Below are positions 1 to 21,730 of a stretch of 28,682 nt of DNA, in pieces; the stretch's first letter is position 1, and each line of letters opens with the position of its first letter. The position numbers and the translations under genes are program-made. Source of the stretch: an uncultured Verrucomicrobiota bacterium (GTDB lineage Bacteria > Verrucomicrobiota > Kiritimatiellia > CAYTQP01 > CAZOLK01); contig CAZOLK010000051.1 in NCBI GenBank assembly GCA_964580325.1, forward strand, positions 1-28,682, read 5' to 3'. The notes under the pieces were generated by a model. The model was not told where the DNA came from. It did no database searches and saw only the letters and a program-made list of their open reading frames with translations.

Positions 1-505
1 GATCCTGAACGTCGGCGGCCGGGCCCTCTGAGCGGCGGCGCGGGGGCGCCGGCCTGGGGCGTGATGCGGTCCGTCTGCGACTGATGCGTCGCATGGCGCC
101 AACACCGGCCGCGGCCTTGAATTTGCTGATGATCTCGTCTGCTACCCGATCCAGGTTGCTGCTGACCGTTCCGTCCGGTTTGGCGATATAATCGAACGCG
201 CCCAGTTCCAGCGCTTCGAACGTGGTTGATGCGCCGGTGTGGGTCAACGACGAAATCATGACCACCGGACAGATCTTCTCCTCGTTGACGATCTGTAGCA
301 CGCTCAACCCGTCCAGCTTGGGCATGTTGATGTCCAGCGATAACACATCCGGTTTCATTTCGCGGGTTTTAGTGACCGCATCCTCACCGTCGCGTGCATA
401 CCCGATCACCTCGAATGCGGGATCTTTTTCAAGCATTTTGATCAAAGTGCGGCGCATGAGCGCGGAATCATCCGCCACCAGAACTCTGATTTTTTTGTCA
501 GCCAT
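1..505 (-). CDS. cheB: CheB-like response regulator, 5' part only (receiver domain plus linker); gene runs off the left edge
   Basis: Minus-strand ATG at 503-505 follows an AT-rich leader. Translation reads MADKKIRVLVADDSALMRRTLIKMLEKDPAFEVIGYARDGEDAVTKTREMKPDVLSLDINMPKLDGLSVLQ...FDYIAKP. The receiver has the DD pair, the phospho-acceptor Asp in DINMPKLDG and the Lys in AKP. It is followed by a KFKAAAGVG linker resembling the CheB REC-to-methylesterase linker. No stop occurs before position 1. The methylesterase domain itself is not visible. Confidence 0.6.
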   Translation of the reverse strand, partial: MADKKIRVLVADDSALMRRTLIKMLEKDPAFEVIGYARDGEDAVTKTREMKPDVLSLDINMPKLDGLSVLQIVNEEKICPVVMISSLTHTGASTTFEALELGAFDYIAKPDGTVSSNLDRVADEIISKFKAAAGVGAMRRISRRRTASRPRPAPPRRRSEGPAADVQD

Positions 506-693
506 AGCCAAACTCCATAAAAAATACAAGAATGATAAACGTAATGAAATAATGAATAAGATACGAATTTTTTACCCATATCCATCAATGCCCGAGCTGT
601 TTATCCTCTGGCATGTGCGGTCAGCGCGCAGATCGCGACAGTCCGGATGTCCTCTGGAACCTATCCATATCCGTTCCGCGATCCACGCCTGTT

Positions 694-2670
694 TTATTCC
701 GCGCTGTCCTTATCTGGAATCTCTTTTTTGGCGGTTGACTTGGCACGTGATCGCGAGCCGTTCTTCCGAACCGGCTGTTTCGGCGGTTTGGCAGGTTCCG
801 CGGCCTTGGCTTCCGCCTTGGTGCGGGACTGGTGCAAAATGCTTTCCACATCCAGGAACACGATCATGCGCTTGCCGTCATCCACCTTCGCAATGCCGGA
901 AATGAAACGGTCCTTGCCATCGCCATCCACGGCTTTGGGCGGCGGCTCCACGTCGCGGTTGGCGATGTTCAACACCTGGCTCACGCTGTCTACACGCAGC
1001 CCGGTCTTGGTGCCGTCCAGGTCGACGATGATGATCCGTGTGCGATCATCCGTATCCACCGCGGGCATGGCAAAATGCGACCGCAGGTTGATCACCGGGA
1101 TCACCTCGCCGCGCAGGTTGGTCACACCCTCGACAAAGGCCGGAACGCGCGGAATGCGCGTGATTTTGGTGTAGCGGTCGATCTCGCGGATCTGCGCGAT
1201 CGGCACGCCAAACTCCTCCGCGCCCAGCTTGAACGTGACCAGCAACTGCTCGTCCATCTCGCGCTTCTTCTGCCCCTCTTCGTTCTTGTCAACGACCGCT
1301 ATGTCGCCATTGCCATTGAGCGATTCCTCGACGACCTGCATATCTTTCGACTGCAGCAACTTGCCCGAATCCAGAATCATGATCAACCGCTCGCCATCGT
1401 TGAGCTTGGCAATGCCGGCCAGCTCCGCGTTCTGACTATCGCTCAATTGCGGCGCCGGATCGGTGCACTCGTTGGGCACATTCAGCACTTCATTGACATG
1501 ATCCACGACCAGCCCCAGCAGCGTGCCGTTGGTGTCTACCACCACGATGCGCTGGTCTTCGGCAATAGCGCCGGCCACCATGTCTTCAAATCGCTGCTGG
1601 GTATGAATCACATCATCCAGCAGCGGCGCCACAACGCTCTTGAACGCACTGGCGGCTGCCTCGGCATCCTGGTTCTTGTTCAGAAAATCGGCCACGGTTT
1701 TCTGTGCTTTTTCGTTGCTGGCGCGCAGGTGCGTGATGCACTCGGTCAGCTCCTCGCTGGAACTACTCACCTGGCTCAACCAATGGCGCAGTTTTTCAGG
1801 CGCATGGGTCTTGGGCGCATCCACCTCGGGGTTCTCGCTCCAGGTGACCAGGGCCTCTTTCCACAAGCCGTAACCTTGGCGCAGACGCTCGCAGCAGGCG
1901 CGCAACTCATCAGCCAGCAGCGGCTGATTCATGACCAGGCGCAGATCCACGATGGGCAGCAGCTTGCCGCGCACCGTCAGCACGCCCAGGAGATAGCTGG
2001 GCGCTTCCGGAATCTGGCGTGCCGGTTTGACGCGCAGAATCTCGCGTACCTTGTCGATGGGGAACGCATACTCTTCGCGCGCCACCTTGAATGTCACCAT
2101 CTGGGTGATGTCCTGGGTGGCCTGGTCGCTGACTTCGTTGAGCTGTTCCTGAACCGCACTGCCTTCGGCGCGCGCCTGGGCTGCCTGGATCTGCTCCAGG
2201 TTAGCCTTGCACACTTCGACCGCGTTGAGCACAATGATGATCCGCTTGCCGTCCTCCAGCTTGACCACGCCGTCGAGATACTCTGAACTGACCTCGCCGA
2301 TCACGCTGGGCGGCGGCTCCATATTGGAGGCGGAGATGCGGTCGACCTGCCTGACCCGGTCCACGCGCAAGCCGGTTTTCTGACCGTGCAGGTCAATCAC
2401 CAGCAGACGCGTTCGATCCGTCTCATCCACGCGCTCCATACCGAAGCGCGTGCGCATGTCGACAATGGGCAAGACCGTACCGCGCAAGTTGGCCACTCCG
2501 TCCACATATTCCGGAGTCAAAGGAACACGGGCGATATCCGGAGGTCGGATAATCTCTTGGATATCCATGATATCAAACCCGAATTCTTCGTCCCCGAGCG
2601 AGAAGGAGACCAGTTGCATTTCGTCTTTCTGGGTCTTGACCTCGTCTAATTGCTCGGTTGTATTTTCCAT
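694..2670 (-). CDS. Multi-CheW scaffold protein with three CheW-like domains and a Lys/Ala/Pro-rich basic C-terminal tail
   Basis: The 658-aa ORF contains three segments of the form LVxFxLG(D/A)EE(F/Y)G(F/V)xI...IxxVPxxPxxVxGVxNLRGxV(L/I)P(I/V)(I/V)(D/N)(M/L)R, which matches the CheW fold signature. The middle domain is split by an insertion of about 110 aa. The C-terminus is AKAAEPAKPPKQPVRKNGSRSRAKSTAKKEIPDKDSAE. Confidence 0.85.
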   Translation of the reverse strand: MENTTEQLDEVKTQKDEMQLVSFSLGDEEFGFDIMDIQEIIRPPDIARVPLTPEYVDGVANLRGTVLPIVDMRTRFGMERVDETDRTRLLVIDLHGQKTGLRVDRVRQVDRISASNMEPPPSVIGEVSSEYLDGVVKLEDGKRIIIVLNAVEVCKANLEQIQAAQARAEGSAVQEQLNEVSDQATQDITQMVTFKVAREEYAFPIDKVREILRVKPARQIPEAPSYLLGVLTVRGKLLPIVDLRLVMNQPLLADELRACCERLRQGYGLWKEALVTWSENPEVDAPKTHAPEKLRHWLSQVSSSSEELTECITHLRASNEKAQKTVADFLNKNQDAEAAASAFKSVVAPLLDDVIHTQQRFEDMVAGAIAEDQRIVVVDTNGTLLGLVVDHVNEVLNVPNECTDPAPQLSDSQNAELAGIAKLNDGERLIMILDSGKLLQSKDMQVVEESLNGNGDIAVVDKNEEGQKKREMDEQLLVTFKLGAEEFGVPIAQIREIDRYTKITRIPRVPAFVEGVTNLRGEVIPVINLRSHFAMPAVDTDDRTRIIIVDLDGTKTGLRVDSVSQVLNIANRDVEPPPKAVDGDGKDRFISGIAKVDDGKRMIVFLDVESILHQSRTKAEAKAAEPAKPPKQPVRKNGSRSRAKSTAKKEIPDKDSAE

Positions 2671-2724
2671 TGCTATCCTTTTTGATTGATTGAAAGCGTT
2701 TCTTCAACGAGCAGGCCCAAGCGC

Positions 2725-4677
2725 TTAACCATTCTGCAACTCATCCGCCTGCGAAGCGATATCTTCGACTGCCTGGGCGATTTCCTGGGCTGCCTTGGAA
2801 CCCTCTTCGGAGGCCACGGCTGCCTCGGAGGAGGCGCGGTTCATCTGCTCGGCCGCGGAACTGATCTGCTCGCTCGCCTTGGCTGCCTCTTCCAATGCTT
2901 TCAATGATTCCTGAGCGCCCTGTTCAATCTCGCTGATGTTTTCGTCCAGGATAGAGATATCTTTGCCGATCGATTGCAGGTTGCTTGAGGAAATACGCGC
3001 ACGTTCTACTTCCTGGGCCGCGGTCTTGCCGGACAATTCGATATCGCCGGCCACCTTGTCGATCTGCAACTGGATCGCACGCACCATATCCTTGATCCGG
3101 TCCGCGTTCTCACTGCTCTCGTTGGACAGGGAGCGGATGTCGCCGGCCACGACAGAGAAACCGCGGCCGTATTCACCGGCGCGCGCTGCTTCCACGTTGC
3201 CGTTGACCGCGAGCATGTTGGTCTGAACCGTAACCATCACAATGGCGTCCACGATCTTGTCGATGGCCCGGGTCCGGTCACTCAATTCCTGTACGTTCCT
3301 AGCCGAACTGATCGAAGATTCCGCGGCATTGCCGATTTCTTCGATCAGGTTCTCCACATTCGTACAGTTGCGCTCCAGCAACTCGCGAATGGAATTCACC
3401 CGCTCCACGCCGACACGTGCGCGGTCGGACATACCCTTGGATGCGGCATTGAGTTTTTCACCCAGTTCCATAGAGGTCTGCGCAGATTTACCCTGTTGCG
3501 CCGCAGCCTTGCTGATCTGTTCGATGGCAGCCGCGATCTGGGTGGCGGCCGCACGCACTTCTTCGGCGTTGGCTGACAACTCCTCGGCGCTGGCAGCCAG
3601 TTCTTCGGCCGATTTCTGCGCGTTGGTCGACGTTTTCAGCGTTTCCGCCTGGTCGTTCAGCATGCTGGCTGCATCGCCCATTTCGGTGAACGCCTTGGCT
3701 TGCTCCTGGACCGCCTTCAACGCTTCGTTACCGGCCGATGACGCTTCTTCCGAGGCTGAGGCGATTTCCTCCGCGCCTTTCAGATAAGCGGCAGCCCCGG
3801 CATTGGCCTCTTCAGCATTTTGCAAAATTTCCTGGGTTCCGTCCATCACCTTGGCAAAATCGTCGACAATCTGGCTCAGGTCACTGTTGATGACCTTGGC
3901 TTTTTCGACTTCTTCCTGCCCTTTTTTGCCGGCAGCTTCGGCATCGTTGGCCACCACACGGACTTGCTCTTGGATCTCGTTGACCACGTCCTGGATGCCG
4001 CGCGCACTCTTCTCGCTGATCTCGGCCAGGTTGCGCACCTCGTCGGCCACCACCGCGAAACCTTTGCCATGCTCACCGGCGCGCGCCGCTTCAATGGCCG
4101 CGTTCAACGCCAGCAAGTTGGTCTGGTCCGCGATGCGCGCCACCGCGTTTACGATCTTGCCAATCTCGTCGGACTGGCGTTCCAGTTCCTGGATCATCTT
4201 GGCCGAGTCGATGTTAGCCTTGGCCGCGGTCTGCACCCCTGCGATCAAGCCTTCAATCTCGCTCGTCGTGGTTTTAATCAAATCCTGCAGTCGCTTGCAG
4301 TTCTTGATCGATGTTTCGGCGCGTTCATTGGCCACGGTAGCGGATCTATCGATCTGGTTGATCGCCGCCCTGGACTCTTCCGCGGCCGCGGAAGCCTGTT
4401 CCGCGCCTGATGCGATTTGCTGCATGGTTTTTTCAAGTTCATCGATAGCGCCCCCCGCCTGGGTCACCGCGCTGCTGACCTGCGAGGTGGCTACCGTTAA
4501 TTTCTCAGCCACGGCCTGGGCCCGGGCCAATGTACGTGCGCGAGCGCGCTCCTCGGCTTGACGCCGTGCGGCCAAGCGACCATCATCTCTTTCTTTCGGT
4601 TCATTAGAGCCGGATCCCACCTTCCCTCTTACGGGCTCATTTGGAGCGGCAAGTGTCTTCGTCATTACTTCCTCCAC
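2725..4677 (-). CDS. Soluble methyl-accepting chemotaxis protein with two tandem MCP signalling (MA) domains
   Basis: The 650-aa ORF has no hydrophobic transmembrane segment. Two highly conserved receptor hairpin-tip motifs are present: [35 protein letters not shown] and [36 protein letters not shown]. Each is embedded in a long A/E/Q-rich heptad coiled coil. Confidence 0.85.
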
Positions 4678-4771
4678 GGATTTGTTTTTTTCATTTCAAA
4701 CACACAGGCAGCCGTATCCATCATCCCAGCTCACCTGAACTGAAACTGCCTATTTCTGTGCAAGGTCTCCC

Positions 4772-4787
4772 TGCATAAAGCGTGCCG
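4772..4787 (-). promoter_or_regulatory. Candidate sigma54 (-24/-12) promoter for the MCP-CheW3-CheB operon
   Basis: Minus-strand sequence cGGCACG-CTTT-aTGCA matches the consensus TGGCACG-N4-TTGCA, including exact GG-N10-GC spacing. It lies about 95 nt upstream of the MCP ATG at 4677, and the divergent gene encodes a sigma54 activator. Confidence 0.55.
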
Positions 4788-4827
4788 ATATGCGATTCTG
4801 GCAACAAAAAAAATGCGCCACCCGGCA

Positions 4828-4880
4828 ACACGCCCTATCTCGCACATGAACACGCCCTATCTCGCACATGAACACGCCCT
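4828..4880. repeat. 22-bp tandem direct repeat (2.4 copies) in the divergent intergenic region; candidate enhancer/UAS
   Basis: The unit ACACGCCCTATCTCGCACATGA occupies 4828-4849 and is repeated exactly at 4850-4871, with a partial third copy at 4872-4880. It lies 40-100 bp upstream of the sigma54 promoter in minus-strand orientation. Confidence 0.8.
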
Positions 4881-5046
4881 TAGCCCGTTGTCATCGCATC
4901 ATGCCCAAAGCTGGTTACTTATTGACCAGGGTGGTTAGAAAAGTACCGGTCGGCATGCTTTTTGCCGGTTGGAAAATATACTTCTTTACGCTTTACATTT
5001 GTTTTTTGCACATTTTTGTGTTAATAAATATTTATGATAAATAAGT

Positions 5047-6660
5047 ATGAGTTCGGTTGTTTTTGTTTTTTTGCCGATTAGTGTTATGGAAACCGCAATA
5101 CTATTGATCGAAGGTAATCGTGTATCTGCGGCCATGTTTCGCGAAATGCTGGCTTCTGCGGAATACACGTTGACTTGGGTTCCTGACGGGTTACAGGGAT
5201 TGAAGTTGGCCCGGGAAAACAATTTTGACATGGTCTTCGTCGATATCCAACTGGCTGGCACGGATGGTCTCGAATTGCTGCGCAATCTGCGCCGCCATTG
5301 CCCCGCGTTGACGATCGTGGTTATTTCCGCCCATATCGACAGCGCAGCTATCATAACCGCCACCCGCTTTGGCGCCTACGATTACTTGGAAAAACCGATC
5401 GATCACGAGAACTTGATCCGACTGATTGATCGCGTGCAAGGCAAGATCGATGACCGATCTGACCTGGCTGTCGGCCTCGACGAACACAAATCCACGCTGG
5501 TTGGTCAGAGCCGAACCATGCGCACAGTATATAAGGAAATAGGCCGCATCGCAGCCCTGCCTGTCACGGTGCTGGTCAACGGTGAAACCGGAACTGGCAA
5601 AGAACTGGTGGCGCGCGCCATTCACGAATTCAGCGACCGCGCCGACCAACCTTTTGTGGCCATCAACTGCGCCGCGATCCCCGAATCGTTGCTGGCCAGT
5701 GAATTATTCGGTCATGAACGCGGCGCTTTTACCGGCGCTCATACCGCGCGCAAAGGGAAATTCGAACAGGCGGACGGCGGCACCCTGTTCCTGGACGAAA
5801 TCGGCGATATGGACCACCACCTGCAAGCGCGGATATTGCGTATCCTAGAGGATCGTTCGTTACAACGCCTCGGCGGCAATGGTCGTTCCACGCGCATCGA
5901 TGTGCGCATCATCTCCGCCACCCACCGCAACCTACCAACCATGATTCAAGACCATACGTTCCGCGAAGACCTCTACCATCGCCTGGCCGTCTCGGTCATT
6001 ACCCTGCCGCCATTGCGCGAGCGCCGCACCGATATCCCGCTATTGATCGATTTTTTTCTCAAGCGCTACATGAAGCAGTTCGGCATGCATTGCCCAGGCA
6101 TGGATTCGCGCGCAGTGGAATACCTGAGCCGCAAAACGTGGTCCGGCAATGTGCGCGAACTGGAAAACTACGTACGCAGCGCATTGGTACGTGCGCGCGG
6201 TTTGGCTATCACCTATGATTTGCTGCGCGAAATCGATGGCATCCTGGCAAAAAACAGCCCGAAACAGAAGATCACCGTTCCATCAGCCCTGCCCGCGGCT
6301 GAACAGACGGCTGAACCAGTCGAAACGCCTGCCATGACCGCACTGCCCATACCTGCAAAACCCCGGCAAAGCGAGCCTGCCCGTGACCCAGCCGATGAAA
6401 ATGAAGATTTATTAGATAGATGGGTACGAAAAATGCTTGATCAAGCTGAGCATGACCATGTACGGCGTAGAGCTATGGACTGCCTGGATCGTGTGCTGAT
6501 CCGCTATGCCATGCATGAGTCTCGGGGCAACCGCACTCGGGCCGCCAAGATGTTGGGCATCAACAGGCTAACTTTGCGCAAACGGCTCAGTGATCTGGGT
6601 ATCGAAGTGAAAAGCGTTTTGAAAGTACGTGGCATGGAACAGATGGTATTGGATATTTAA
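5047..6660 (+). CDS. Sigma54-dependent transcriptional activator (enhancer-binding protein of the NtrC family): receiver domain, AAA+ sigma54-interaction domain, C-terminal HTH
   Basis: The AAA+ domain carries the Walker A motif GETGTGKE and the GAFTGA motif (ELFGHERGAFTGAH). An N-terminal receiver domain contains DIQLAGTDG, and the C-terminal HTH reads RTRAAKMLGINRLTLRKRL. The start could instead be the METAILLIEG Met at 5086. Confidence 0.9.
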   Translation: MSSVVFVFLPISVMETAILLIEGNRVSAAMFREMLASAEYTLTWVPDGLQGLKLARENNFDMVFVDIQLAGTDGLELLRNLRRHCPALTIVVISAHIDSAAIITATRFGAYDYLEKPIDHENLIRLIDRVQGKIDDRSDLAVGLDEHKSTLVGQSRTMRTVYKEIGRIAALPVTVLVNGETGTGKELVARAIHEFSDRADQPFVAINCAAIPESLLASELFGHERGAFTGAHTARKGKFEQADGGTLFLDEIGDMDHHLQARILRILEDRSLQRLGGNGRSTRIDVRIISATHRNLPTMIQDHTFREDLYHRLAVSVITLPPLRERRTDIPLLIDFFLKRYMKQFGMHCPGMDSRAVEYLSRKTWSGNVRELENYVRSALVRARGLAITYDLLREIDGILAKNSPKQKITVPSALPAAEQTAEPVETPAMTALPIPAKPRQSEPARDPADENEDLLDRWVRKMLDQAEHDHVRRRAMDCLDRVLIRYAMHESRGNRTRAAKMLGINRLTLRKRLSDLGIEVKSVLKVRGMEQMVLDI

Positions 6661-6665
6661 TTTAT

Positions 6666-7343
6666 ATGGATGTGCTGATTGTAGACGACGAGGCCGACTT
6701 CATCGATGTGTGCATACGCCTGCTCGCGCGTGAACCTTACCGTATCGAAGGTGCGCAATCAGGTGAACAGGCGCTGGCCAAGCTGGCAGACAAGACCTAT
6801 CATGTACTTGTCAGCGATATTCGTATGCCCAATATGGATGGCCTTGCACTCATGCAAAAGGTTCAGTGGCTCTACCCGGAAACAGCCATCGTTGCCATCA
6901 CGGCCCATGGCGATATCGACCTTGCTGTACAGTGCATGAAATACGGCGCGCTGGATTTTCTGCAAAAGCCTGTGGGCTCAGCTAAACTGCGCGAAACACT
7001 GGCATCCGCCATGCAATCCCGCCGCACTTCGGATATGCTTGCAGAAAACCGCGATAGCCTGGATCATCAGGTCTCTACCCGTGTCATGGAGGTGTTTATC
7101 GAGGATACGGCCCGTGTCCTGGACGAGATGGAAATCCATATCCAACGCCACGAATACGGCAACGTGCGCGAACTGGCCCATTATCTCAAGAGCAGTTGCT
7201 GTACGATTTACCGCATGGGCATGGACATGGTCGAACTCTGTGTGCAGCTCATGCACATGGATGAGTACGTCACAGAGCAGACCTGGCAACTCAAACGGTG
7301 TAACCTGCTAGACCTTTTTCAAGCTGTTCCACAAGGGAAATAG
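6666..7343 (+). CDS. Receiver domain fused to a C-terminal Hpt (histidine phosphotransfer) domain
   Basis: The N-terminus MDVLIVDDEADF...VLVSDIRMPNMDGLAL...AITAHGD is a canonical receiver. The C-terminal NVRELAHYLKSSCCTIYRMGMDMVELCVQLMHMDE resembles the Hpt HxxKG helix. The start codon sits 5 nt after the EBP stop. Confidence 0.75.
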   Translation: MDVLIVDDEADFIDVCIRLLAREPYRIEGAQSGEQALAKLADKTYHVLVSDIRMPNMDGLALMQKVQWLYPETAIVAITAHGDIDLAVQCMKYGALDFLQKPVGSAKLRETLASAMQSRRTSDMLAENRDSLDHQVSTRVMEVFIEDTARVLDEMEIHIQRHEYGNVRELAHYLKSSCCTIYRMGMDMVELCVQLMHMDEYVTEQTWQLKRCNLLDLFQAVPQGK

Positions 7344-7384
7344 CATGGATATGAAACGTTTATATATAGAAAGAGGAGGTTGAG

Positions 7385-8266
7385 ATGGAACCACACGCCT
7401 ATCTAAAATCAGGCACCAACGAGTTGAAGATCATGGAGTATTCGACCAGCGGCGTTCACTTTGGACTCAACATTCTGAAGACCAGCCGCGTGGTCAGCCT
7501 GCCGCCCAAGCTGCACCAGCCCGGCAATATGCACCCCGCGGTCATTGGCCTGATGAACGATCACGGGATCATCGTGCCCGTGATCGACCTGGCCCTGTTC
7601 TTGAAGTTGAAAGATAAACATCCGGACGAACACGAACTGCGCGGGCGCATCCTGATCACCGAGTTCTTCGGCCAGGTCAACGGCTTTCTGATCGATGCTG
7701 TGCACTATGTTCACACCATCATGTGGGAACGTGTATTCGACGCGGTCGAGATCATGGGCAACCTGGTGGGCAAATACGTGATTGGCATTGTGCGGCCCGA
7801 CGAAGAAAAAATGATCCTGCTGCTCGATTACGAAAAGATCATTCTCGATTTGAGCCCCGTCATCGAAGCCAATGAGCGGCAGAAAATGGACCATGAGATA
7901 CACGGCGAAAACCGCAAATTGCTGATTGCCGAGGATTCCACCGCAGTACGCGACATGTTGGCCGTGGAACTGAGCGATATGGGCTTTGAGGTGCTGATCG
8001 CCAAGGACGGTCGGGAAGCATGGCGCATCTATGAACAGAACCGCGATCTCGCCATGGTCGTTTCCGATGTGGAAATGCCCCAACTGGAAGGGTTGAGCCT
8101 GACCAAAATGATCAAGGACGACAATCCCCAGATGCCGGTCATTGTCTACTCGTCCATTGGCGACATTGGTATGAAAAAGCGGGCCGAAGACGTACAGGCC
8201 GATGCCCATGTCACCAAGCTGAATGTCAAAGAATTGATGGACGTAACGCGAGAACTGTTGTCATGA
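7385..8266 (+). CDS. cheV: CheV-like coupling protein (N-terminal CheW domain plus C-terminal receiver)
   Basis: The N-terminal part is a CheW-like fold, and the C-terminal KLLIAEDSTAVRDML...MVVSDVEMPQLEGLSL...VIVYSS is a receiver. The RBS GAGGAGG lies 6 nt upstream. A 4-nt ATGA overlap joins this gene to the next. Confidence 0.85.
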   Translation: MEPHAYLKSGTNELKIMEYSTSGVHFGLNILKTSRVVSLPPKLHQPGNMHPAVIGLMNDHGIIVPVIDLALFLKLKDKHPDEHELRGRILITEFFGQVNGFLIDAVHYVHTIMWERVFDAVEIMGNLVGKYVIGIVRPDEEKMILLLDYEKIILDLSPVIEANERQKMDHEIHGENRKLLIAEDSTAVRDMLAVELSDMGFEVLIAKDGREAWRIYEQNRDLAMVVSDVEMPQLEGLSLTKMIKDDNPQMPVIVYSSIGDIGMKKRAEDVQADAHVTKLNVKELMDVTRELLS

Positions 8267-9009
8267 GCAAAGCCGAACAACCAGCCCAGGACCCTTTTCT
8301 GACCTACCTGGTCCATGACCTGGAACCGGCCATGGCCTCGTTTCAAACCTTGCTCCGCTTGCTCAAGCAGAAACGCTACGCCCCAGACAACCCGATGCAC
8401 GGCAAGCTGGTGCATAGTTGCGACGCGGCCCTGCAATTCAGCCTGGGGCTGTTGCGCGACATGCTCGAATTCTCCAAGATGAAACGTATGGACTGGCCTG
8501 TACATCCCGCATCCTTTGCCTGGTCGGGCCTGTTCGACGAATGCCTGGCGCTCGCGTCAGTGCTCGCCGCGGACCGGGAGGTCGCCATCAACGGCCATAG
8601 CCTGGATACGGCGGATGAGTTCATGTCCGATGCCTGCATGATCAAACGCATTGTGGTCAACCTGCTGACCAATGCCATCAAAAACGTCGACCGCGGCGAC
8701 AAAGTGCAGTTGCGCTATACCAGAACCGACAAAGGCGCACTGATCCAAGTGGAGAACAAGGTGGACGGCATGGACGAGGCGTTTTGCAACAGAATTTTCG
8801 ATGAGCATGTGCAGTTGCCTGCGCACGATGGCAAGCGCGCTTATCGCGGCGTCGGCCTGGGCTTGAGCTATTGCCGCGCCGCCTGCGAAAGATTGCGCGG
8901 TAGCATTGCCGCCGAACTGCACGACCAGGGACGGCGCTTGCGTATGGTTCTCGAACTGACTCCATGGCCATCGCAAAGCAACGGTCCTGTGGATGGAGGC
9001 GAAGACTGA
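8263..9009 (+). CDS. Small cytoplasmic histidine kinase (HisKA plus HATPase_c only, no sensor domain)
   Basis: The H-box is LTYLVHDLEPAMASF, the N-box is VVNLLTNAIKN and the G-box is YRGVGLGLSYCRA. The 248-aa protein has no TM or sensor segment. Confidence 0.8.
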   Translation: MSKAEQPAQDPFLTYLVHDLEPAMASFQTLLRLLKQKRYAPDNPMHGKLVHSCDAALQFSLGLLRDMLEFSKMKRMDWPVHPASFAWSGLFDECLALASVLAADREVAINGHSLDTADEFMSDACMIKRIVVNLLTNAIKNVDRGDKVQLRYTRTDKGALIQVENKVDGMDEAFCNRIFDEHVQLPAHDGKRAYRGVGLGLSYCRAACERLRGSIAAELHDQGRRLRMVLELTPWPSQSNGPVDGGED

Positions 9010-9010
9010 A

Positions 9011-10183
9011 ATGCTGCACCAGATCAACATCCTGCATATCGAAGACAGCCCAATCGACAGCGCCTTGATCAAAGGTATGCTAGAATTGGACGAGCAGCAG
9101 CGTTTCACCTTGGAAAACGCCAAAAGCTTTGCCGAAGCTTGCCAGTTATTCATCCGAAACAAGTACTCGTTGATCCTGTGCGACTTGAACCTGCCCGACA
9201 TCATGGGCCGCGACACCGTGATCAACTTGCAGGAATTCGCAAAGTCAACGCCGATCATCATCCTGACCGCCAATGACGATGAGGCATTCAGTCGTGAAAT
9301 GGTGCAACTGGGTGTACAGGATTACCTGGTCAAAGGACATTTCAACTCTGATCTGCTCAAGCGCGTGATCTACTATGCCATCGAACGTTTCGAGGTGTTG
9401 AAAAAACTGGAACGCAAACAGGTCCAACTGGCCCATGCCGGGCGCCTGATCTCGCTGGGCGAAATGTCCGCTGGCCTGGCCCACGAATTAAACAATCCCC
9501 TGCAGATCATCCGCTCCGCCATCGATTTAATTGAAGTCACCTTTCGCGAACCCGACTGTGACGATGACGAGATCCAGTTGATGATCGATCGCATCAAAAA
9601 ACATGTCACACGGGCCAGCAATATCATCAACAACATGCGCATGTTTGTGCGCCAGGGCAACATTGGCGAAACCCATACGGTCAACCTGCGCGAAGCCATC
9701 CTGCAGGCCATGAACTTCATGCGTCAGCGTCTCTACCAGCATAATATCGATTATCGCGAGGAATTGGCGCCCAAACCCTGGCCGGTCAAAGCCCATACGC
9801 AACGCTTTGAACAGGTGGTGATCAACTTGGTCAGCAATGCTTTTCACGCCATCGAATCCAAGGTCTATCAACGTGGAGAACCGCGCCAACTGACCATTAC
9901 CCTGCAAAACATAAGGCAACTGCCCGCTTATATGACGCAGTCGGACAGCAAACAAGACGCGTGGGTGCTGATGGAAGTGAGCAATAACGGCAGCCCCATG
10001 AGCGAGGAGCAGCAAATGAACTGCTTCGAACCGTTTTACACGACCCGTACCGAAGGCATTGGCCTGGGCCTGTCCATCGCTTCCTCGCTGATCAGGGATT
10101 TCAACGGCATCATCGATGTCTGTGCGCGCGATGACCTCACCGTGTTTGGCGTAGCCCTGTCGGCCATAGGACAAACAGATTGA
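9011..10183 (+). CDS. Hybrid kinase with N-terminal receiver followed by HisKA and HATPase_c (REC-HK)
   Basis: The receiver reads INILHIEDSPID...LILCDLNLPDIMG...IIILTAND. The H-box is GEMSAGLAHELNNPL, and the ATPase motifs are LVSNAFHAIE and GIGLGLSIASSLI. The start was chosen at the Met directly after the upstream stop (TGAAATG), which has GGAGG about 12 nt upstream. The ORF-track start at 8993 is an alternative. Confidence 0.8.
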   Translation: MLHQINILHIEDSPIDSALIKGMLELDEQQRFTLENAKSFAEACQLFIRNKYSLILCDLNLPDIMGRDTVINLQEFAKSTPIIILTANDDEAFSREMVQLGVQDYLVKGHFNSDLLKRVIYYAIERFEVLKKLERKQVQLAHAGRLISLGEMSAGLAHELNNPLQIIRSAIDLIEVTFREPDCDDDEIQLMIDRIKKHVTRASNIINNMRMFVRQGNIGETHTVNLREAILQAMNFMRQRLYQHNIDYREELAPKPWPVKAHTQRFEQVVINLVSNAFHAIESKVYQRGEPRQLTITLQNIRQLPAYMTQSDSKQDAWVLMEVSNNGSPMSEEQQMNCFEPFYTTRTEGIGLGLSIASSLIRDFNGIIDVCARDDLTVFGVALSAIGQTD

Positions 10184-10228
10184 ATTCAGCCCAAAGGGGT
10201 ATCCACGTAACAAGGCGACCCGGATAGA

Positions 10229-10741
10229 TCAGAACAAACATTCATGATCTATGGCGACCACAACCCGGCGTCTGCGTTTGCCATAGGTGATGATCCCTTC
10301 CATGGGTTCGACGAAATCATCGATGCTCTTGATCCGACCGTCGAACACCGCGGTGTTGTTGAGCGTGTGCTTTAAACACGCGTTTTTCCAGCCACCAGTA
10401 AAGATGACCTGACGCAAATAGCGGAACTTGACCAGGATCGCACGCAACCGCTCCGACTGGGCATTGACGTTATCGCCGCTGAAACAGGGCACAAAATCGA
10501 CACGGTCGCTGAACTCCCGCAGAAAGTCCGGCAACTCGGTATCGTTCTGTTGCAAGCCAAGTATAATAACCGCCATCTCACGGAAGAGCTGACTCTTGAT
10601 TTTGCGCTTCAAGAGGGTAATATACCCCTTCGGATCCGTGATCACTTTACTGCACGCCAGCGCGAACTCATCGGGATGGACCACCACGTAGGCTGTGACA
10701 GGCCCCTCGTCCACACCTGATCTGGTCCGATCACTCATCAT
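10229..10741 (-). CDS. Hypothetical 170-aa protein translationally coupled to cheR; family not recognised
   Basis: The ORF is intact and overlaps the CheR stop by ATGA, so it belongs to the same operon. I recognise no motif; it does not match CheD, CheC or CheX signatures by eye. Confidence 0.5.
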   Translation of the reverse strand: MMSDRTRSGVDEGPVTAYVVVHPDEFALACSKVITDPKGYITLLKRKIKSQLFREMAVIILGLQQNDTELPDFLREFSDRVDFVPCFSGDNVNAQSERLRAILVKFRYLRQVIFTGGWKNACLKHTLNNTAVFDGRIKSIDDFVEPMEGIITYGKRRRRVVVAIDHECLF

Positions 10742-11589
10742 GCTTTCCGATAATAATACTTATGCTTTACGCGAAAATCAAGATCCGGGACATAGTTGGT
10801 GATCGGATAAGCCAGGCTGAGAAACAGGTAACCGCCCGGCGCCAGGCTCTCGTACAACGCACGGATGACCCGTTGCTGCGCATCCATGCTGAAATAGAAA
10901 AGCACATTCTTACAGAAGACAAAGTCAAAATTGCGCATGGCGCGCAAACTGGCAAAATCGGTCAGGTTCAAACAAGAGAACTGGACCATCTGCTTGACGA
11001 TCGGTTTGACCGCATAACCTTTGACGCCGTAATCGCAATACCGGTAGCTGAACGATTCGGGCAGCGTGCGCTCCAGCTCGCGGCTGTACACGCCTTGCCG
11101 GGCGATCTCCAGGTAATGGCGCGAGATGTCCGTGGCCGCAATCATGTAGCGCCACGTCTCGTTCCGCCCTGCGTCAAGCATCAGCATGGCCAGCGAATAG
11201 GGCTCTTCGCCCGTGGAACAGCCGGCGGACCAGGCCTTCAGCAACTGGCTGCCACGAACACGCTTGGTCTGCTTGACTTCAGGCAGACACTCCTCGACAA
11301 ACACTTCCAGTTGACGCTGATCCCGAAAAAAAAAGGTTTCGTTGACGATCAGCAACTCCAGGAAATACTGGAACTCACCCTCGAGTCGCTGGTCCGCGGC
11401 CAGCAATTGATAGTATTCGTCAAAGGTCAGATCAAGTGCGCTCATGCGCTTTTGCAGACTGCTGGACAGGCCATATTGTTGCTTGGCCGCCATCTCGATG
11501 CCGGTGCGCATCTGTACCAGGGCGCCGACGGTTTCGATATCTTCAGCAACAGGTTTACGATAAGGCATAATATATTCCTTTGGAAACAA
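10738..11589 (-). CDS. cheR: CheR-type chemoreceptor glutamate methyltransferase
   Basis: The motifs ETFFFRDQ, the SAM-binding WSAGCSTGEEPYSLAM and DFVFCKNVLFYF are CheR hallmarks. Confidence 0.9.
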   Translation of the reverse strand: MFPKEYIMPYRKPVAEDIETVGALVQMRTGIEMAAKQQYGLSSSLQKRMSALDLTFDEYYQLLAADQRLEGEFQYFLELLIVNETFFFRDQRQLEVFVEECLPEVKQTKRVRGSQLLKAWSAGCSTGEEPYSLAMLMLDAGRNETWRYMIAATDISRHYLEIARQGVYSRELERTLPESFSYRYCDYGVKGYAVKPIVKQMVQFSCLNLTDFASLRAMRNFDFVFCKNVLFYFSMDAQQRVIRALYESLAPGGYLFLSLAYPITNYVPDLDFRVKHKYYYRKA

Positions 11590-11618: not shown

Positions 11619-11750
11619 AAGCCTTCCGATCAGCATTTTGGCCAGGCTGATGGGCTTGCACATATAGTCTTGCATACCCGCGGCCATGCCTTGCTTGCGG
11701 CTCTCTTCCAACGCATCCGCAGTCATGGCGAGATATATGGCGGGTTCGCA
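11619..11750 (-). pseudogene. Remnant of a receiver-domain gene (only the C-terminal beta4-alpha4-beta5-alpha5 part) upstream of cheR
   Basis: The translation PAIYLAMTADALEESRKQGMAAGMQDYMCKPISLAKMLIGRL is the C-terminal half of a CheY-like receiver. No phospho-acceptor Asp or DD pocket is encoded upstream in any frame. The upstream part of the listed ORF (TTG start) is the 31-bp repeat element rather than coding sequence. Confidence 0.5.
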
Positions 11751-11821
11751 GGCGCCGTAAGTTGGTGGCCCTTTGGACCGACGAGATGGCAACGTGATTA
11801 AGGAGAGCATTTCCAATTTTA

Positions 11822-11852: not shown

Positions 11853-11947
11853 TTAAATAAATAACCTTTTCGTTCTTTTTTTATCATGCTAAAACCAAAG
11901 GATCATATGGAAGTTGTCATCATATGTTTTGGGAATAAGCGGATGTG

Positions 11948-11997
<50 letters not shown>

Positions 11998-12042
11998 CAT
12001 TTTTCCCACGCTTTATTTCACCAAATGGACGGACTTGAGGAC

Positions 12043-13218
12043 ATGATGAAGAATACGGAATTATACAGACAGCTTGTTGCACATCACCGCCGGCAATACC
12101 AGTGCGACCCTTATCTAGTGGCCTATGCGCCCGGTCGCGTTGAGGTACTGGGCAATCATACCGACTACAACGAGGGCTTCGTGCTCTCCGCTGCCATCGA
12201 TACCGGCATTTTATTCGCGCTTTCCGAATCGGTTCGGGACCATTGCCGGCTTTTCTCGGTCAACATGAACGAACAGGTGACGTTTACCCCCGAATCCATT
12301 GAGCCGGACCTCCAGGCCGCGGCAGGCTGGAGCAATTACAGCAAAGGGGTTTTTAAACTGATCCAGGAGCGCCGGAAGCCGGATCGCTGTTTTGACGCGA
12401 CTTTGTGCAGCAACCTGGCCATGGGCGCCGGTTTGTCCAGTTCGGCGGCCATTGAAATATCCACGGCTCTGGCCTTGAGCACGTTTTATGGTTTGGACAT
12501 CGATCTCCTCGATCTAGCGAAAATCGGTCAGCGCGCGGAGCGCGAGTACGCAGGTGTCAGTTGCGGGCTGCTCGATCAACTCACCAGCTTGTTCGGTCGG
12601 CACAATGCCCTGGTGTACACCGATTTTCGCAGCCTGAACGTGAAACCCGTGAACATGCCGGAGCAGATCGTGTTCCTGCTTTGCAACACCAAGGTCAAGC
12701 ATAGTCTGGTGGATTCGGAGTACAATGAACGCCGCGCTTCATGCGAAAAGGCGGCCGCATTCTTCAATCAAGCGCGCGACCGCGAGATCAAGGCCCTGCG
12801 TGACGTGACTTGGGCGGAATGGGAAGCGCACCAAAACGCTATGGATCCCATGCTGGCCAAGCGCGCCGCTCATGTGATCGGTGAAAACGAGCGCGTGCGC
12901 AAAGCGCTCGATCTGCTCGAACACGATGACATGAAAGCGTTCGGTGAGTTGATGTTCGCCTCGCACGAAAGTTCGATTACGTATTTCGAAAACTCATGCC
13001 CTGAGCTGGACTTCGTGGTCTCATGCGCCCGTGACATACTGGGCGTGCTGGGCGCACGCCTGTCCGGCGGCGGTTTCGGCGGCAGTGCAATCCTGCTGCT
13101 GGAAAAACAGAACCTGGACAGCGTAGCCATGGCTCTGGAAAAGGCTTACGTGGAAAAGATCGGTCATCCCGCGGAAATCCGCACCGTACTACCTTCGGAC
13201 GGCGCCCGCATGGTTTGA
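12043..13218 (+). CDS. galK: Galactokinase (GHMP kinase family)
   Basis: The GalK signature PGRVEVLGNHTDYNEGFV and the GHMP ATP loop MGAGLSSSAA are present. The start was taken at the ATGATG preceded by GAGGA. The longer ORF-track N-terminus (from 11914) overlaps the tRNA-like fragment and is probably not translated. Confidence 0.85.
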   Translation: MMKNTELYRQLVAHHRRQYQCDPYLVAYAPGRVEVLGNHTDYNEGFVLSAAIDTGILFALSESVRDHCRLFSVNMNEQVTFTPESIEPDLQAAAGWSNYSKGVFKLIQERRKPDRCFDATLCSNLAMGAGLSSSAAIEISTALALSTFYGLDIDLLDLAKIGQRAEREYAGVSCGLLDQLTSLFGRHNALVYTDFRSLNVKPVNMPEQIVFLLCNTKVKHSLVDSEYNERRASCEKAAAFFNQARDREIKALRDVTWAEWEAHQNAMDPMLAKRAAHVIGENERVRKALDLLEHDDMKAFGELMFASHESSITYFENSCPELDFVVSCARDILGVLGARLSGGGFGGSAILLLEKQNLDSVAMALEKAYVEKIGHPAEIRTVLPSDGARMV

Positions 13219-13348
13219 ACACGCCGCTATGCCGTATTTCACCGTATCAACACGGCTAGACGGCTAGACCGGAAACATCACGTGGCGACGTCATGATGTA
13301 CATGATTTGTGCGGGGGATGAGTCGATGGAATCGATGGATTCTGATAG

Positions 13349-14641
13349 CTAGCGTAATTCATCGCGCACGAACTGGTAGAGCGCTTCCTGGCCAAAGTTG
13401 CCGGACTTGAGGACCAGCAGCAGGTTTTCACGGTCCGTGGGGAAGCAATAGGGAACGCCCGGCGCCAAGGGCAGGCCCACTTCAACGGCGCGGATGTCCA
13501 GCTTGCGGCAGACCGCACCCGAGGTTTCACCGCCGGCCACAATCAGCCGCCCGACCGCGCCGCGCTCCACCAGAGTTCCGGCTATGCCGGCCAGCGTATC
13601 GGCAATGCGCTCGCCGGTCCGGACACTGTTCAAACCCTGATCCGCGCCCATTTGCTGTATGCGCTCGATGCCGGCCCGGTCCATGGACGGGGCCTGGACC
13701 AGCGCACCGCCAGCCTGGTTCAACGCCGCTTCTGCCAGGTCCAGAACGTTGGCTGGATCATAGGTTCCTTGCACAATGGCCGGGATATCCAGGGTTAACT
13801 TTTTAAAGTCATGGGCTTCGGCATGTTGGGTCTGGCGCGCCGAGGTGGGTGACTGGCTGCCGGAAACGACCAACGTGGCGCGCGGCATAGCTTGCAGGCG
13901 CTTGCTGAAATCGAGCGGCTTGGTCTGGCACCCGTGGGCCGCGGGCAATGCTGCGGTGATGCCCGAGCCGCCGCTGATCAGGGGCCAGCCCCTGACCGCC
14001 ATAGCAATCCGGTCCAGGTCGTCCTGACAGACCGCGTCGGTCACCAGCCAGACCGCGCCTGCATCGACCAATTGCTCCAGTTTCTGGCCCAGGTCCGGCC
14101 CGCGCACCGTTTCCAGCGGAACCAGCTCTACCTTGCGGTCGGTCTGATATTGCAGCCAGCGCACCAGGTTGGCGTCGGTCATGGGGTTGAGCGGATGGTT
14201 GCGCAGAGCGGATTCGGACAGCAGTTTCCGGCCGACAAATAAATGGCCCTGGTACACCGTGCGTCCATTGACCACCAGGGCCGGGCAGACGATCGAAGCC
14301 CTGGCCAGCGGCAGTGCGCCCAGCGCCGCGTCAAGGGTCGGCCCGATATTGCCTTCGCGTGTGGAATCGAATGTCGAGCAGTACTTGATCTGGATTTGTC
14401 CCACGCCCAGGTCGCGCAGCAAACTAACGGCGCGCGATGTAGCCGCGGCAGCCAGCTCGGGCGCAACCGAGCGGTTCTGAGTTCCGATGACCACGGCCTG
14501 AAACGCGTCCAGCGCAACCGGCGGATGGGCCAGGTCATTTTCGTTCATGATCAACAGCGTGCGTGCACCTCGCTCGGTCAGCATGCCGGCCGCATCCGTG
14601 GCGCCTGTATTGTCGTCGGCGATAATGCCCCATTTCAGCAT
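13349..14641 (-). CDS. Four-carbon acid sugar kinase family protein (DUF1537; OtnK/YgbK-like 3-oxo-tetronate kinase family)
   Basis: The N-terminus GIIADDNTGATD and the C-terminal nucleotide-binding region VAGGETSGAV match the DUF1537 kinase family. Confidence 0.75.
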   Translation of the reverse strand: MLKWGIIADDNTGATDAAGMLTERGARTLLIMNENDLAHPPVALDAFQAVVIGTQNRSVAPELAAAATSRAVSLLRDLGVGQIQIKYCSTFDSTREGNIGPTLDAALGALPLARASIVCPALVVNGRTVYQGHLFVGRKLLSESALRNHPLNPMTDANLVRWLQYQTDRKVELVPLETVRGPDLGQKLEQLVDAGAVWLVTDAVCQDDLDRIAMAVRGWPLISGGSGITAALPAAHGCQTKPLDFSKRLQAMPRATLVVSGSQSPTSARQTQHAEAHDFKKLTLDIPAIVQGTYDPANVLDLAEAALNQAGGALVQAPSMDRAGIERIQQMGADQGLNSVRTGERIADTLAGIAGTLVERGAVGRLIVAGGETSGAVCRKLDIRAVEVGLPLAPGVPYCFPTDRENLLLVLKSGNFGQEALYQFVRDELR

Positions 14642-14656
14642 GGACTTGTCCTCACC

Positions 14657-15292
14657 TTACATTTGACGGTTGAGCAATTCGTTGACTTGCGCTTCGTTCA
14701 GCGCTTCACCGCCCTGGCGCACCCAGAGCCACTGGCGGCAGTTTTCCTCCAGCTCCTCCAGAATGCCCAGCGCCTTGCGCCCGGTCGGCCCCATAACCAG
14801 TACGCCATGGTTGCGCAACAACAGGGCACGGTGCTGTTGGACGCCTTGGGCAATAACCTGAGCCAGTTCCGCACTGCCTGGCGGGTGATAGGCCAGCACA
14901 GGGACGTGTCCGGCACGCATGACGAACTGCGGCGTGACCGACGGCAGCCGGTCGCCGACAGCCAGAAAAGTCGATGCGGCTATGGCGTGGCTCGGATGCG
15001 CATGCACCACACAGCGTACATCCGGACGCTGACGCAGAATCGCCAGGTGCCCGCCCTTCTCCTTGCTGGGACGCCGGTCATTGAGCGCGCAGCCATCGAG
15101 CGTCAACAGGGACAGGTTATCTATACGGATATCGGCCATACCCACGCCGGTCGGCGTAACCGCGCAGCGCCCGTCTTCGCCCGGCAGGCGGATGCTGGCG
15201 TTGCCGCTGGTCGACGTGCCCAGCCCACTGCGCGCCAGCGCGTGGCAGACATCCACCAACTCGCGCAAGGCTTGTTCGTCGCCCGTGTTCAT
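14657..15292 (-). CDS. Class II aldolase/adducin-family protein (OtnC/FucA-like)
   Basis: The motifs GNASIR, PSKEKGGH and VVHAHPSHA are typical of class II aldolases. The start was taken at MNTGDEQ, which overlaps the upstream stop by ATGA. The longer ORF-track N-terminus is unlikely. Confidence 0.7.
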   Translation of the reverse strand: MNTGDEQALRELVDVCHALARSGLGTSTSGNASIRLPGEDGRCAVTPTGVGMADIRIDNLSLLTLDGCALNDRRPSKEKGGHLAILRQRPDVRCVVHAHPSHAIAASTFLAVGDRLPSVTPQFVMRAGHVPVLAYHPPGSAELAQVIAQGVQQHRALLLRNHGVLVMGPTGRKALGILEELEENCRQWLWVRQGGEALNEAQVNELLNRQM

Positions 15293-15978
15293 TCCGTATC
15301 CCTGAAAGACGCGGCCCGCAGCTCGCGCAAAGTCGCGGCCAGGCGCTGCATGGCCGGTTGCGGACTGGAATAGATCGGGACCGCCCGAGTATCCTCGGGC
15401 AATTGTTCGACGATCCGCGCCATGGAAGCCTGAGCCAGGCATACGGCATCCACATCGCGCATCAGGTTTTCCAGCGCAGCCTTGACCAATCGGTCGTGGG
15501 CAGCCATGTCACCGGTGAACAGGGCGTCGTACGCACCTTCAACCAGGCACTCGACCACGACGGTATCGCGCCCTTCTTCGTCGGCCAGGTCACGGGTCAA
15601 CGCAACACTGGGCCGCAACGTAGCCGGATTGGTGGCGATCAAGCCGTTGCGCGCATGCTGTTGCACAGCGCTGCGCAGCATGGGATCGTCGATGCAGAGC
15701 ACCGGGATCGACGTCATCTGCCGCGCCAGCGGGGCGCATGGCGAAAGCGACGAGCAGGTGAGTTGAACCACACCGGCGCCGGCATCGGCCGCGGCCGTGA
15801 TGTGGTCGCACACCCGCCGGGTAATGGCCGGAGTCAAGCCGCCGGCCGCGAGCAGGCGCTGGATCAGGCTGTCGTCAGCCACATGGAACAGCTTGACGTC
15901 CGGAATGGTTTCGCACGCCAACTGATCGAACGCGTCACAGACCTTCCAGAGCGAATGCAACAGGCAAACCTTGATCAT
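15289..15978 (-). CDS. Asp/Glu/hydantoin racemase-family protein
   Basis: The fold-level resemblance is to the Asp/Glu racemase / arylmalonate decarboxylase superfamily (MIKVCLLHS..., paired Cys-containing segments). The start was taken at the Met that overlaps the upstream stop by ATGA. Confidence 0.5.
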   Translation of the reverse strand: MIKVCLLHSLWKVCDAFDQLACETIPDVKLFHVADDSLIQRLLAAGGLTPAITRRVCDHITAAADAGAGVVQLTCSSLSPCAPLARQMTSIPVLCIDDPMLRSAVQQHARNGLIATNPATLRPSVALTRDLADEEGRDTVVVECLVEGAYDALFTGDMAAHDRLVKAALENLMRDVDAVCLAQASMARIVEQLPEDTRAVPIYSSPQPAMQRLAATLRELRAASFRDTE

Positions 15979-16616: not shown

Positions 16617-16642
16617 ATCGTTTTCCTTACTATTCTACTTTT

Positions 16643-21056: not shown

Positions 21057-21082
21057 GTAAATTCTCCGGAATAGGTTGTGAT

Positions 21083-21475: not shown

Positions 21476-21730
21476 GTTATCGCTCCTCATGTTAGCAGGT
21501 CCATTGAAGCAATGTAAAACAACACAGCCTTGCCCCACAATAAAAAAAGCAGTTTTCCTTGAATCGGGCGTAACAGGAGGGAGCAGAAGGGAGGGTGCAG
21601 GGTGAAACGTGACCATCGAGGCGGTCGCGCACGGCACGCTACGCTACGTCAGAACTCGGACATCATCATGGTCTGTGAAATCCGCAATTGCAGAGCGCGA
21701 ATTGCGCGACATGGCCATAGCCAAGGGCAG

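Follow-up and report, generated by a model that had tools for sequence, protein, structure and literature searches.

A truncated F9 chemosensory locus beside a probable lineage-specific sigma54/NtrC-type activator module in an uncultured Verrucomicrobiota bacterium

Chemosensory systems of the F9 class, to which cluster I of Vibrio cholerae belongs, are defined by two proteins: DosM, a cytoplasmic and usually sensor-less receptor with tandem signalling domains, and a concatenated triple CheW (PMC7534058; PMC9321776). Together, DosM and the triple CheW form the scaffold of a two-layered, purely cytoplasmic receptor array, which has been imaged by cryo-tomography and whose cellular role is still called unclear (PMC7534058). 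The canonical order of the genes, given as [DosM W3 B. R Y A], is found in a published table of 72 F9-bearing species (PMC9321776 S6). Expression of the V. cholerae system is reported to be conditional and not constitutive, being associated with low oxygen, starvation and late stationary phase, and reviews describe both the role and the regulation of arrays of this type as unclear (PMC7534058; PMC9321776). Here we analyze a stretch of DNA comprising one complete contig of 28,682 bp from an uncultured Verrucomicrobiota bacterium (CAZOLK010000051.1; hereafter the window), whose left part, positions 1-11589, encodes a DosM-type receptor, a triple CheW (CheW3) and the beginning of a CheB. Divergent from these is an operon for an NtrC-type enhancer-binding protein (EBP), CheV and several components of a phosphorelay with receiver (REC), histidine kinase (HK) and Hpt domains.

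Chemosensory genes of other classes have previously been found in association with two-component regulators. In Myxococcus xanthus, the Che3 cluster and the kinase CrdS jointly regulate the NtrC homologue CrdA, which is served also by a conventional NtrB-like kinase (PMC3147164). In Rhodospirillum centenum, CheA3 of a different Che3 system phosphorylates the receiver of the REC-HK protein CheS3, with CheY3 and cyst formation as the output (PMC3868531). The window resembles the M. xanthus system in that a chemosensory cluster is tied to an NtrC-family sigma54 activator; unlike the latter, which has membrane-bound methyl-accepting chemotaxis proteins (MCPs) and no CheY, it is of the F9 type, its relatives keep CheY, its relay is a multi-part, sensor-less one, and it is known from its genes alone. 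Likewise, it shares with the R. centenum system a REC-HK encoded along with Che genes, whose receiver is the input there and the proposed input here, whereas the Che class differs and the R. centenum output is not a sigma54 activator; this likeness is one of architecture.

The domain architecture of its proteins, and their relatedness to environmental F9 loci with the full canonical order, identify region 1-11589 as the promoter-proximal part of a truncated F9 chemosensory locus, a class that is already known (Table 1). Both hallmarks of the class are seen in the window proteins. The receptor displays an internal duplication (residues 86-336 versus 386-636, 35% identity), with no transmembrane (TM) segment predicted and a maximum hydropathy of 1.34; its true start is likely to be the ATG at 4665, downstream of a GGAGG. 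Self-comparison of CheW3 delineates three CheW domains (residues 15-156, 186-250 plus 374-441, and 471-616), and 815 of the candidates scored are homologues at E<=1e-20, with lengths of ~550-650 aa for the 120 listed. Thus, as in V. cholerae cluster I (DosM VC1403, CheW3 VC1402, CheA VC1397), a soluble, sensor-less receptor with tandem MA domains is combined with a triple CheW, and the genes are in the order dosM-cheW3-cheB, which continues in the relatives as.-R-Y-A. An earlier note on this DNA, made from the sequence alone, had listed an MCP, a three-domain CheW, a CheB-like gene, CheV, CheR, kinases, a REC-Hpt protein and an EBP, and all of these domains were recovered by Pfam, with weak matches for the Hpt and for the HisKA of the sensor-less kinase (HK248). 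The same note considered the combination of CheV, CheW3 and a tandem-MA MCP with the relay as departing from the textbook; of this, the tandem-MA MCP plus CheW3 is in fact the defining signature of the F9 class. As a separate observation, the second domain of CheW3 is interrupted by an insert of ~120 aa (~251-373), with W297, S303, L308, E310 and R316 being invariant in 12 homologues.

The point of greatest apparent novelty in the earlier note was a Che architecture lacking CheA. The window ends on its left inside cheB, and hence the absence of CheA is not observable. We compared it with a set of loci comprising four from genomes, three around the best protein matches and 80 from metagenomes. 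The gene order in the collected relatives is near-invariant, DosM-CheW3-CheB-HEAT repeat-CheR-CheY(-CheY)-CheA, and every related locus that covers 7.5 kb or more beyond the start of cheB has CheA downstream of that gene (42/42). The closest relative, locus L005, with 73% identity to the window in DosM, 62% in CheW3 and 70% in the N-terminus of CheB, has a full F9 operon, with CheA downstream of cheB. The partial CheB of the window is 62-70% identical to the N-termini of full-length CheB proteins (REC plus CheB_methylest) from L001, L005, L007 and L093. Given this, and the published gene order, the lack of a CheA in view is best explained as an artefact of the contig end. The missing HEAT-cheR-cheY-cheA stretch very probably lies beyond that end, as judged by the conserved order. 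Longer assemblies were sought by exact-protein look-up, which returned none for CheW3 (the identical protein is known from this contig only) or DosM, while REC-Hpt led to a single identical 4-kb Logan contig, from run SRR7048222, that begins within the 22-bp repeats described below.

Two arrangements within the collected loci are worth recording in their own right. On a Riflebacteria contig (L007, 792-11012), there are two tandem DosM-CheW3 pairs, with a DnaJ-domain gene and cheR between them, and the second pair is followed by cheB and then directly by a 1008-aa CheA. In L093, a 91-aa STAS-domain-like protein, with weak Pfam matches below the cut-offs, is encoded between the two CheY genes of the F9 operon (8846-9121, plus strand). 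An 'S' component is present in the published F9 gene orders of a few species (PMC9321776).

In contrast to the published F9 systems, the window adds a predicted sigma54 promoter, a divergent operon for an NtrC-type activator with a sensor-less relay and CheV, and an extra cheR coupled to a gene for a protein with a cysteine-hydrolase fold, here termed X. None of these added parts, namely the activator operon, the relay, CheV and the cheR-X pair, is found among the 72 published F9 gene orders (PMC9321776). The 369-bp spacer between dosM and the EBP gene contains on its minus strand a sigma54-type element facing the dosM-cheW3-cheB operon. Sites of this quality, i.e. with two mismatches, have a background frequency of 0.065 per kb per strand, as estimated from ~324 kb of collected DNA counting both strands, and ~0.02 of them are expected on the minus strand of the spacer. 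The sigma54 promoter that had been suggested for the receptor operon thus corresponds to an element of rarer-than-chance quality whose function is a predicted one. A second sigma54-like element faces the EBP operon, and the two divergent elements constitute a 19-nt inverted repeat with 84% complementarity (4770-4788/4950-4968). Between them is a perfect array of two and a half 22-bp direct repeats, which is unique within the window (0 expected). The array is upstream of both -24 elements, at 41-94 bp from that on the minus strand and 71-124 bp from that on the plus strand; these distances are in the range of an enhancer and agree with the position that the earlier note had ascribed to repeats in this region. 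The 22-bp spacing places the repeat copies on the same face of the helix, and the array is a candidate for a shared enhancer, or upstream activating sequence (UAS), of both promoters. We looked for a sigma70 consensus in the 369-bp spacer and found none. Two divergent activator-dependent promoters, with autoregulation of the activator, would be a reasonable interpretation of this layout.

Other elements were also noted. A GC-rich hairpin with a T-run lies in the spacer at an unusual place for a terminator, and could serve as a bend or spacer element. Further sigma54-like matches fall within coding sequence, at 7000-7015 (plus strand, TGGCATCCGCCATGCA), 385 nt upstream of cheV, and at 848-833 (minus strand, TGGAAAGCATTTTGCA), ~330 nt upstream of cheB. 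These intragenic sites (7000 plus, 848 minus and 5890 minus) were put down to chance, the window total of 6 not being above the ~3.7 expected by chance.

The EBP contains the motifs GAFTGA, GETGTGKE (Walker A) and LFLDEIG (Walker B) in its translation, for which there is an alternative start at 5086, and these along with its domain architecture place it among the NtrC-type (group I) activators. It is not an NtrC equivalog, scoring 445 bits with the NCBIfam ntrC model versus a cut-off of 558.6 bits. A divergent NtrC-type activator is also present in L005, with a REC-HisKA-HATPase-REC-(weak)Hpt kinase encoded after it, and the dosM of this locus is preceded by a sigma54-type element, TGGCATGGGAATTGC (position 7868), ~115-130 nt upstream of the start. 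Thus, both the EBP-bearing loci have a correctly oriented sigma54-type element ~100-130 nt ahead of dosM. An EBP was not found in any of the other F9 loci having at least 3 kb of upstream sequence (0/41). Sigma54 sites were discarded as a general F9 trait, as they are seen upstream of dosM in 4 of 58 other loci versus ~2.6 expected by chance. Computationally, the best case for the activator driving the receptor operon is that this promoter type co-occurs with an adjacent activator. Together with the cheV embedded in the activator operon and the F9-associated cheR-X pair that flanks it, this upholds the earlier proposal of a tie between the activator operon and the chemosensory genes; the sigma54/activator link is probably real and lineage-specific. 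Control of array expression by the activator appears, on balance, likely. Within the searchable literature we found nothing relevant on control of V. cholerae cluster I by sigma54/RpoN.

Two broader readings came up in the course of this comparison. One, orthology of the two activators, is not claimed here: the L005 EBP is the top match of the window EBP (459 bits, with generic NtrC homologues at 435), and the REC, AAA+ and C-terminal parts taken singly do not single it out. The other, a widely conserved EBP-F9 module, was rejected, as the loci of the next-best EBP homologues (L008, L010 and L011) have REC/HK/Hpt cassettes that bear no specific resemblance to the relay proteins of the window, and lack Che genes. 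In L005 itself there are two additional features: a 50-nt imperfect inverted repeat, possibly REP-like, in the long dosM-EBP spacer (7361-7466), and a gene for a phage-type integrase (1395-2663) that lies ~0.5 kb past the end of the gene for the hybrid kinase. The proximity of the integrase gene to the EBP module hints that the module may be mobile.

Downstream of the EBP gene lie the genes for the REC-Hpt protein, CheV, the sensor-less kinase core HK248 and a REC-HisKA-HATPase hybrid (REC-HK). The cheV, HK248 and REC-HK genes overlap at their ends, with cheV being translationally coupled to the kinases, and all receivers, including that of CheV, keep the equivalents of D57 and K109. With the N-terminal REC of the L005 hybrid kinase, the REC of REC-Hpt shares 48.7% identity. 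The Hpt part of REC-Hpt is weak: sequence matches in the PDB are to HPt proteins only, at E=0.27 and with the histidine motif aligned as AHYLKSS versus GHFLKGSS, and the C-terminal half is all-helical in an AlphaFold2 model of moderate confidence (pLDDT 63-75). No close homologues of REC-Hpt were found, leaving the C-terminal domain an orphan. HK248 is most similar to the cores of hybrid or unorthodox kinases, namely TorS, LuxQ, ArcB, BarA and RcsC, in an NCBIfam ranking, and the REC-HK is closest to AtoS, ZraS and NR(II). Kinases of the AtoS/ZraS/NtrB type usually partner NtrC-family activators, and in L008 the REC-HisKA-HATPase architecture likewise follows a related EBP.

No TM segment was predicted for any protein of the locus, and Pfam gave no sensor domain for any relay protein; hence, the relay can receive input only through the phosphorylation of a receiver or through protein-protein contact. 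The same inventory of relay domains (REC, HK core, REC and Hpt) is common to the window and L005, being split in the former and fused in the latter. Like ArcB, BarA and TorS, the window set comprises an HK core, a receiver and an Hpt; unlike them, these are on separate polypeptides, lack a membrane or sensor part and have cheV inserted between them. It is plausible, going by this domain content, that the relay receives its input from the CheA of the array.

The genes for CheR and X are located at the end of the activator operon that faces away from dosM. The CheR is ~36% identical to the in-operon F9 CheRs of L005 and L093, versus 62-73% for DosM, CheW3 and CheB, and is therefore an additional paralogue and not a relocated copy from the operon. 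X has no match in Pfam, including the Isochorismatase family, or in NCBIfam, and belongs to a rare family with only 20 related clusters among 1.84 billion representatives. Its confident AlphaFold model (pLDDT 93) displays a Rossmann-like alpha/beta fold of the isochorismatase-like type. The family alignment reveals the invariant motifs VHPDE and TGGW..AC, with an invariant Asp and Cys and no invariant Lys of the D-K-C triad. Going by the order of secondary structure elements in the model, the invariant Cys and Asp appear to occupy the nucleophile and acid positions of isochorismatase-like amidohydrolases. Thus, X differs from characterized isochorismatase-like hydrolases, such as PncA, N-carbamoylsarcosine amidase and YcaC, in having neither a detectable family match nor the invariant Lys; the known members act in small-molecule metabolism, whereas X is found in a chemosensory context and is coupled to cheR. 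The closest homologue of X (48% identical) is encoded within an F9 operon of the order DosM-CheW3-CheR-X-CheB-HEAT-CheR-CheY. Another homologue adjoins clpB with no Che genes, showing that the F9 association is not universal. We speculate that X might be a receptor-modifying enzyme, for example a deamidase, and in this respect an analogue of CheD with an unrelated fold.

Just upstream of cheR, at ~11640-11775 on the minus strand, the translation of a non-coding stretch contains PAIYLAMTADALEESRKQGMAAGMQDYMCKPISLAKML, and in phmmer searches against the collected proteins it matches the beta4-alpha5 third of receivers; Pfam yielded no match for this translation. The stretch has the look of what is left of the 3' part of a truncated receiver gene, in which case the right edge of the island would bear the scar of a rearrangement.

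Table 1. Features of the chemosensory locus and the adjacent activator operon in the window
Feature	Position	Strand	Evidence and remarks
cheB', 5' part only	505->1	-	REC and linker, 168 codons, running off the left contig end; Pfam Response_reg E=2e-22
CheW3	694-2670	-	658 aa; Pfam CheW E=4e-109, four stretches corresponding to three CheW domains
DosM-type soluble receptor	2725-4677	-	Pfam MCPsignal x2, no other domain; no sensor domain
Sigma54-type -24/-12 element before the dosM-cheW3-cheB operon (predicted)	4787->4772	-	CGGCACGCTTTATGCA; GG-N10-GC; 2 mismatches to TGGCAC-N5-TTGCA
GC-rich hairpin with T8 run	4803-4831	-	resembles a terminator (4831->4815, then the T-run); separates the repeats from the -24 element
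22-bp direct repeat, x2.5	4827-4880		GGGCGTGTTCATGTGCGAGATA (minus strand); TRF 100% match, score 108
Second sigma54-like element, facing the EBP operon (predicted)	4951-4966	+	CGGCATGCTTTTTGCC; 3 mismatches over 11 scored consensus positions; GG and GC intact
NtrC-type EBP	5047-6660	+	REC-AAA+-HTH_8; Pfam Sigma54_activat 9e-70, Response_reg 6.5e-24, HTH_8 6e-10
REC and probable Hpt (REC-Hpt)	6666-7343	+	Pfam REC 3e-29; Hpt 22.9 bits, below the 24.6 cut-off
CheV	7385-8266	+	CheW at 22-153 (Pfam 1e-20) and REC at 180-284 (Response_reg 1e-18), as typical of CheV
HK248, sensor-less kinase core (DHp and HATPase)	8263-9009	+	248 aa; HATPase_c 2.6e-14; HisKA weak, 19.6 bits
REC-HisKA-HATPase hybrid (REC-HK)	8993-10183	+	Pfam; NCBIfam AtoS 1.6e-34, ZraS, NR(II)
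X, rare family with isochorismatase-like (cysteine hydrolase) fold	10229-10741	-	170 aa; 4-nt overlap with cheR, translationally coupled
CheR, extra paralogue	10738-11589	-	Pfam CheR E=2e-49

Taking these observations together, we favor, as a fairly likely reading overall, an F9 locus that is cut by the contig end and placed under sigma54/EBP control, with an attached relay and an accessory cheR-X pair. Under this proposal, the phosphorylated EBP would bind the 22-bp repeats between two outward-facing sigma54 promoters and activate both of them. The minus-strand promoter would drive the array operon, rendering its expression inducible, and the plus-strand promoter would drive the operon of the EBP itself, resulting in positive autoregulation. 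The co-transcribed relay (HK core, REC-Hpt and the AtoS-like REC-HK) would set the phosphorylation state of the EBP, with phosphate presumably passing from HK248 to REC-Hpt and on to the REC-HK and/or the EBP, and from the REC-HK to the EBP. The best candidate for the phosphate donor would be the CheA of the array, possibly with CheV as an array-docked partner, and the cheR-X pair on the far side of the activator operon would represent accessory F9 genes. A positive feedback loop had been raised as a possibility in the earlier note; the sigma54-like site facing the EBP operon would be consistent with such a loop.

Several observations weigh against this proposal. Sites with three mismatches, such as the second promoter, occur at 0.39 per kb per strand. 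The putative enhancer repeats are direct and not dyads, while Fis-type helix-turn-helix dimers typically bind dyads. The N-terminus of the EBP receiver (5086-5130) has E-G in place of the acidic pair D12-D13 of CheY, where the L005 activator has E-D, and its phosphorylation or Mg2+ binding may therefore be atypical. The window and L005 EBPs are only 44% identical and, compared by domain, resemble each other no more than they resemble generic NtrC homologues; a UAS motif or promoter-region homology common to the two loci was sought and none was found. There is no rpoN gene visible on the contig, and the arrangement is found in only two genomes, those of the window and L005. To these may be added the 8 of 72 F9-bearing species, about one in nine, that have a partial F9 set devoid of CheA (PMC9321776).

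The last point leads to the alternative of a truly CheA-less Che-like pathway, in which HK248 and the REC-HK stand in for CheA. The published partial sets consist of dosM, cheW3, cheB and cheR with no cheA or cheY (PMC9321776), F9 arrays of V. cholerae form even without CheA (PMC7534058), and the island does hold a cheR at another place. Against this are the termination of the contig within cheB, which leaves the absence unobservable, the presence of CheA in L005 and all the sufficiently long related loci, and the divergence of the window CheR, which marks it as an extra paralogue and not a displaced copy. Moreover, by Pfam neither kinase has a CheW-like P5 domain by which it could dock to an array, and we regard this alternative as very improbable. 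The activator operon could also be an ordinary two-component/EBP operon that happens to adjoin a chemotaxis operon and regulates unrelated genes. Such a coincidence would be in keeping with an EBP that is indistinguishable from generic NtrC homologues, with the nearest EBP homologues elsewhere, which adjoin similar REC/HK/Hpt cassettes and no Che genes, and with the restriction of the EBP-F9 association to two loci. It would leave unexplained why a sigma54-type element on the right strand precedes dosM in both of these loci and is at chance level in the others, why the operon contains cheV, and why the F9-linked cheR-X pair lies on its opposite flank; it also sits poorly with the 48.7% identity between the N-terminal relay RECs of the window and L005. 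Accordingly, mere adjacency is improbable.

A further possibility extends the sigma54/EBP model instead of replacing it, with transcription being an output of the array: the F9 CheA would phosphorylate the REC-HK and/or REC-Hpt, and the relay would act through the EBP on sigma54-dependent genes including the array operon, in a positive feedback. The relay kinases are sensor-less, and receivers are the sole input-type domains both in the window and in the fused REC-HK-REC-Hpt kinase of L005; in addition, cheV is translationally coupled to the HK genes, and F9 genes are present on both flanks of the relay operon. The M. xanthus and R. centenum Che3 systems provide precedents for control of an NtrC homologue and for phosphorylation of a REC-HK receiver by a CheA, respectively (PMC3147164; PMC3868531), and what F9 does in the cell is reported to be unknown (PMC7534058). 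However, related F9 operons come with an ordinary output of their own, namely one or two CheY genes, and there is no EBP in the 41 other F9 loci. Furthermore, the window receivers are 27-37% identical to F9 CheYs, which is at background, and nothing in their sequences points to the relay receivers being CheA substrates; soluble kinases that lack a sensor can also be governed by partners whose genes lie elsewhere. This extension is thus possible and at present doubtful. Still more tentative, and in our view rather unlikely, is a scenario in which the F9 array functions as a bistable transcriptional sensor via CheA, the relay and the EBP, beside or instead of motility, with X acting as a receptor-modifying amidohydrolase analogous to CheD.

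The remainder of the window is of a different nature. At 20268-21637 (minus strand), a rubrerythrin/EncFtn-like gene is immediately followed by one for an encapsulin shell protein (Linocin_M18, E=2e-63), the two forming a ferritin-type encapsulin nanocompartment pair. Regions 11914-19477 and 21993-27777 contain genes for carbohydrate use, encoding a galactokinase, a four-carbon acid sugar kinase-like protein (SBD_N/NBD_C), a class II aldolase, an Asp/Glu racemase-like protein, a 944-aa GH2 protein with a malectin domain, a DUF5696/GH129-like protein and a beta-helix protein. A small DSP-type phosphatase is encoded at 25234-25740. Rfam and tRNA scans detected no RNA genes.

With the contig end accounting for the Che system without CheA, the main surprise of the earlier note falls away. 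What is new here is the addition to a known F9 cluster of a lineage-specific sigma54/NtrC-type module, a split, sensor-less relay with CheV, and a pair of CheR and a putative hydrolase. As this arrangement is seen in two uncultured genomes only, its generality is low. The locus also presents a rare protein of the cysteine-hydrolase fold paired with an extra CheR in or beside F9 clusters. For the F9 class as such, the combination of a predicted sigma54 promoter, an EBP and a relay with receivers as its only inputs could explain how F9 arrays come to be condition-dependent, and the sigma54/EBP circuit may couple array signalling to transcription.

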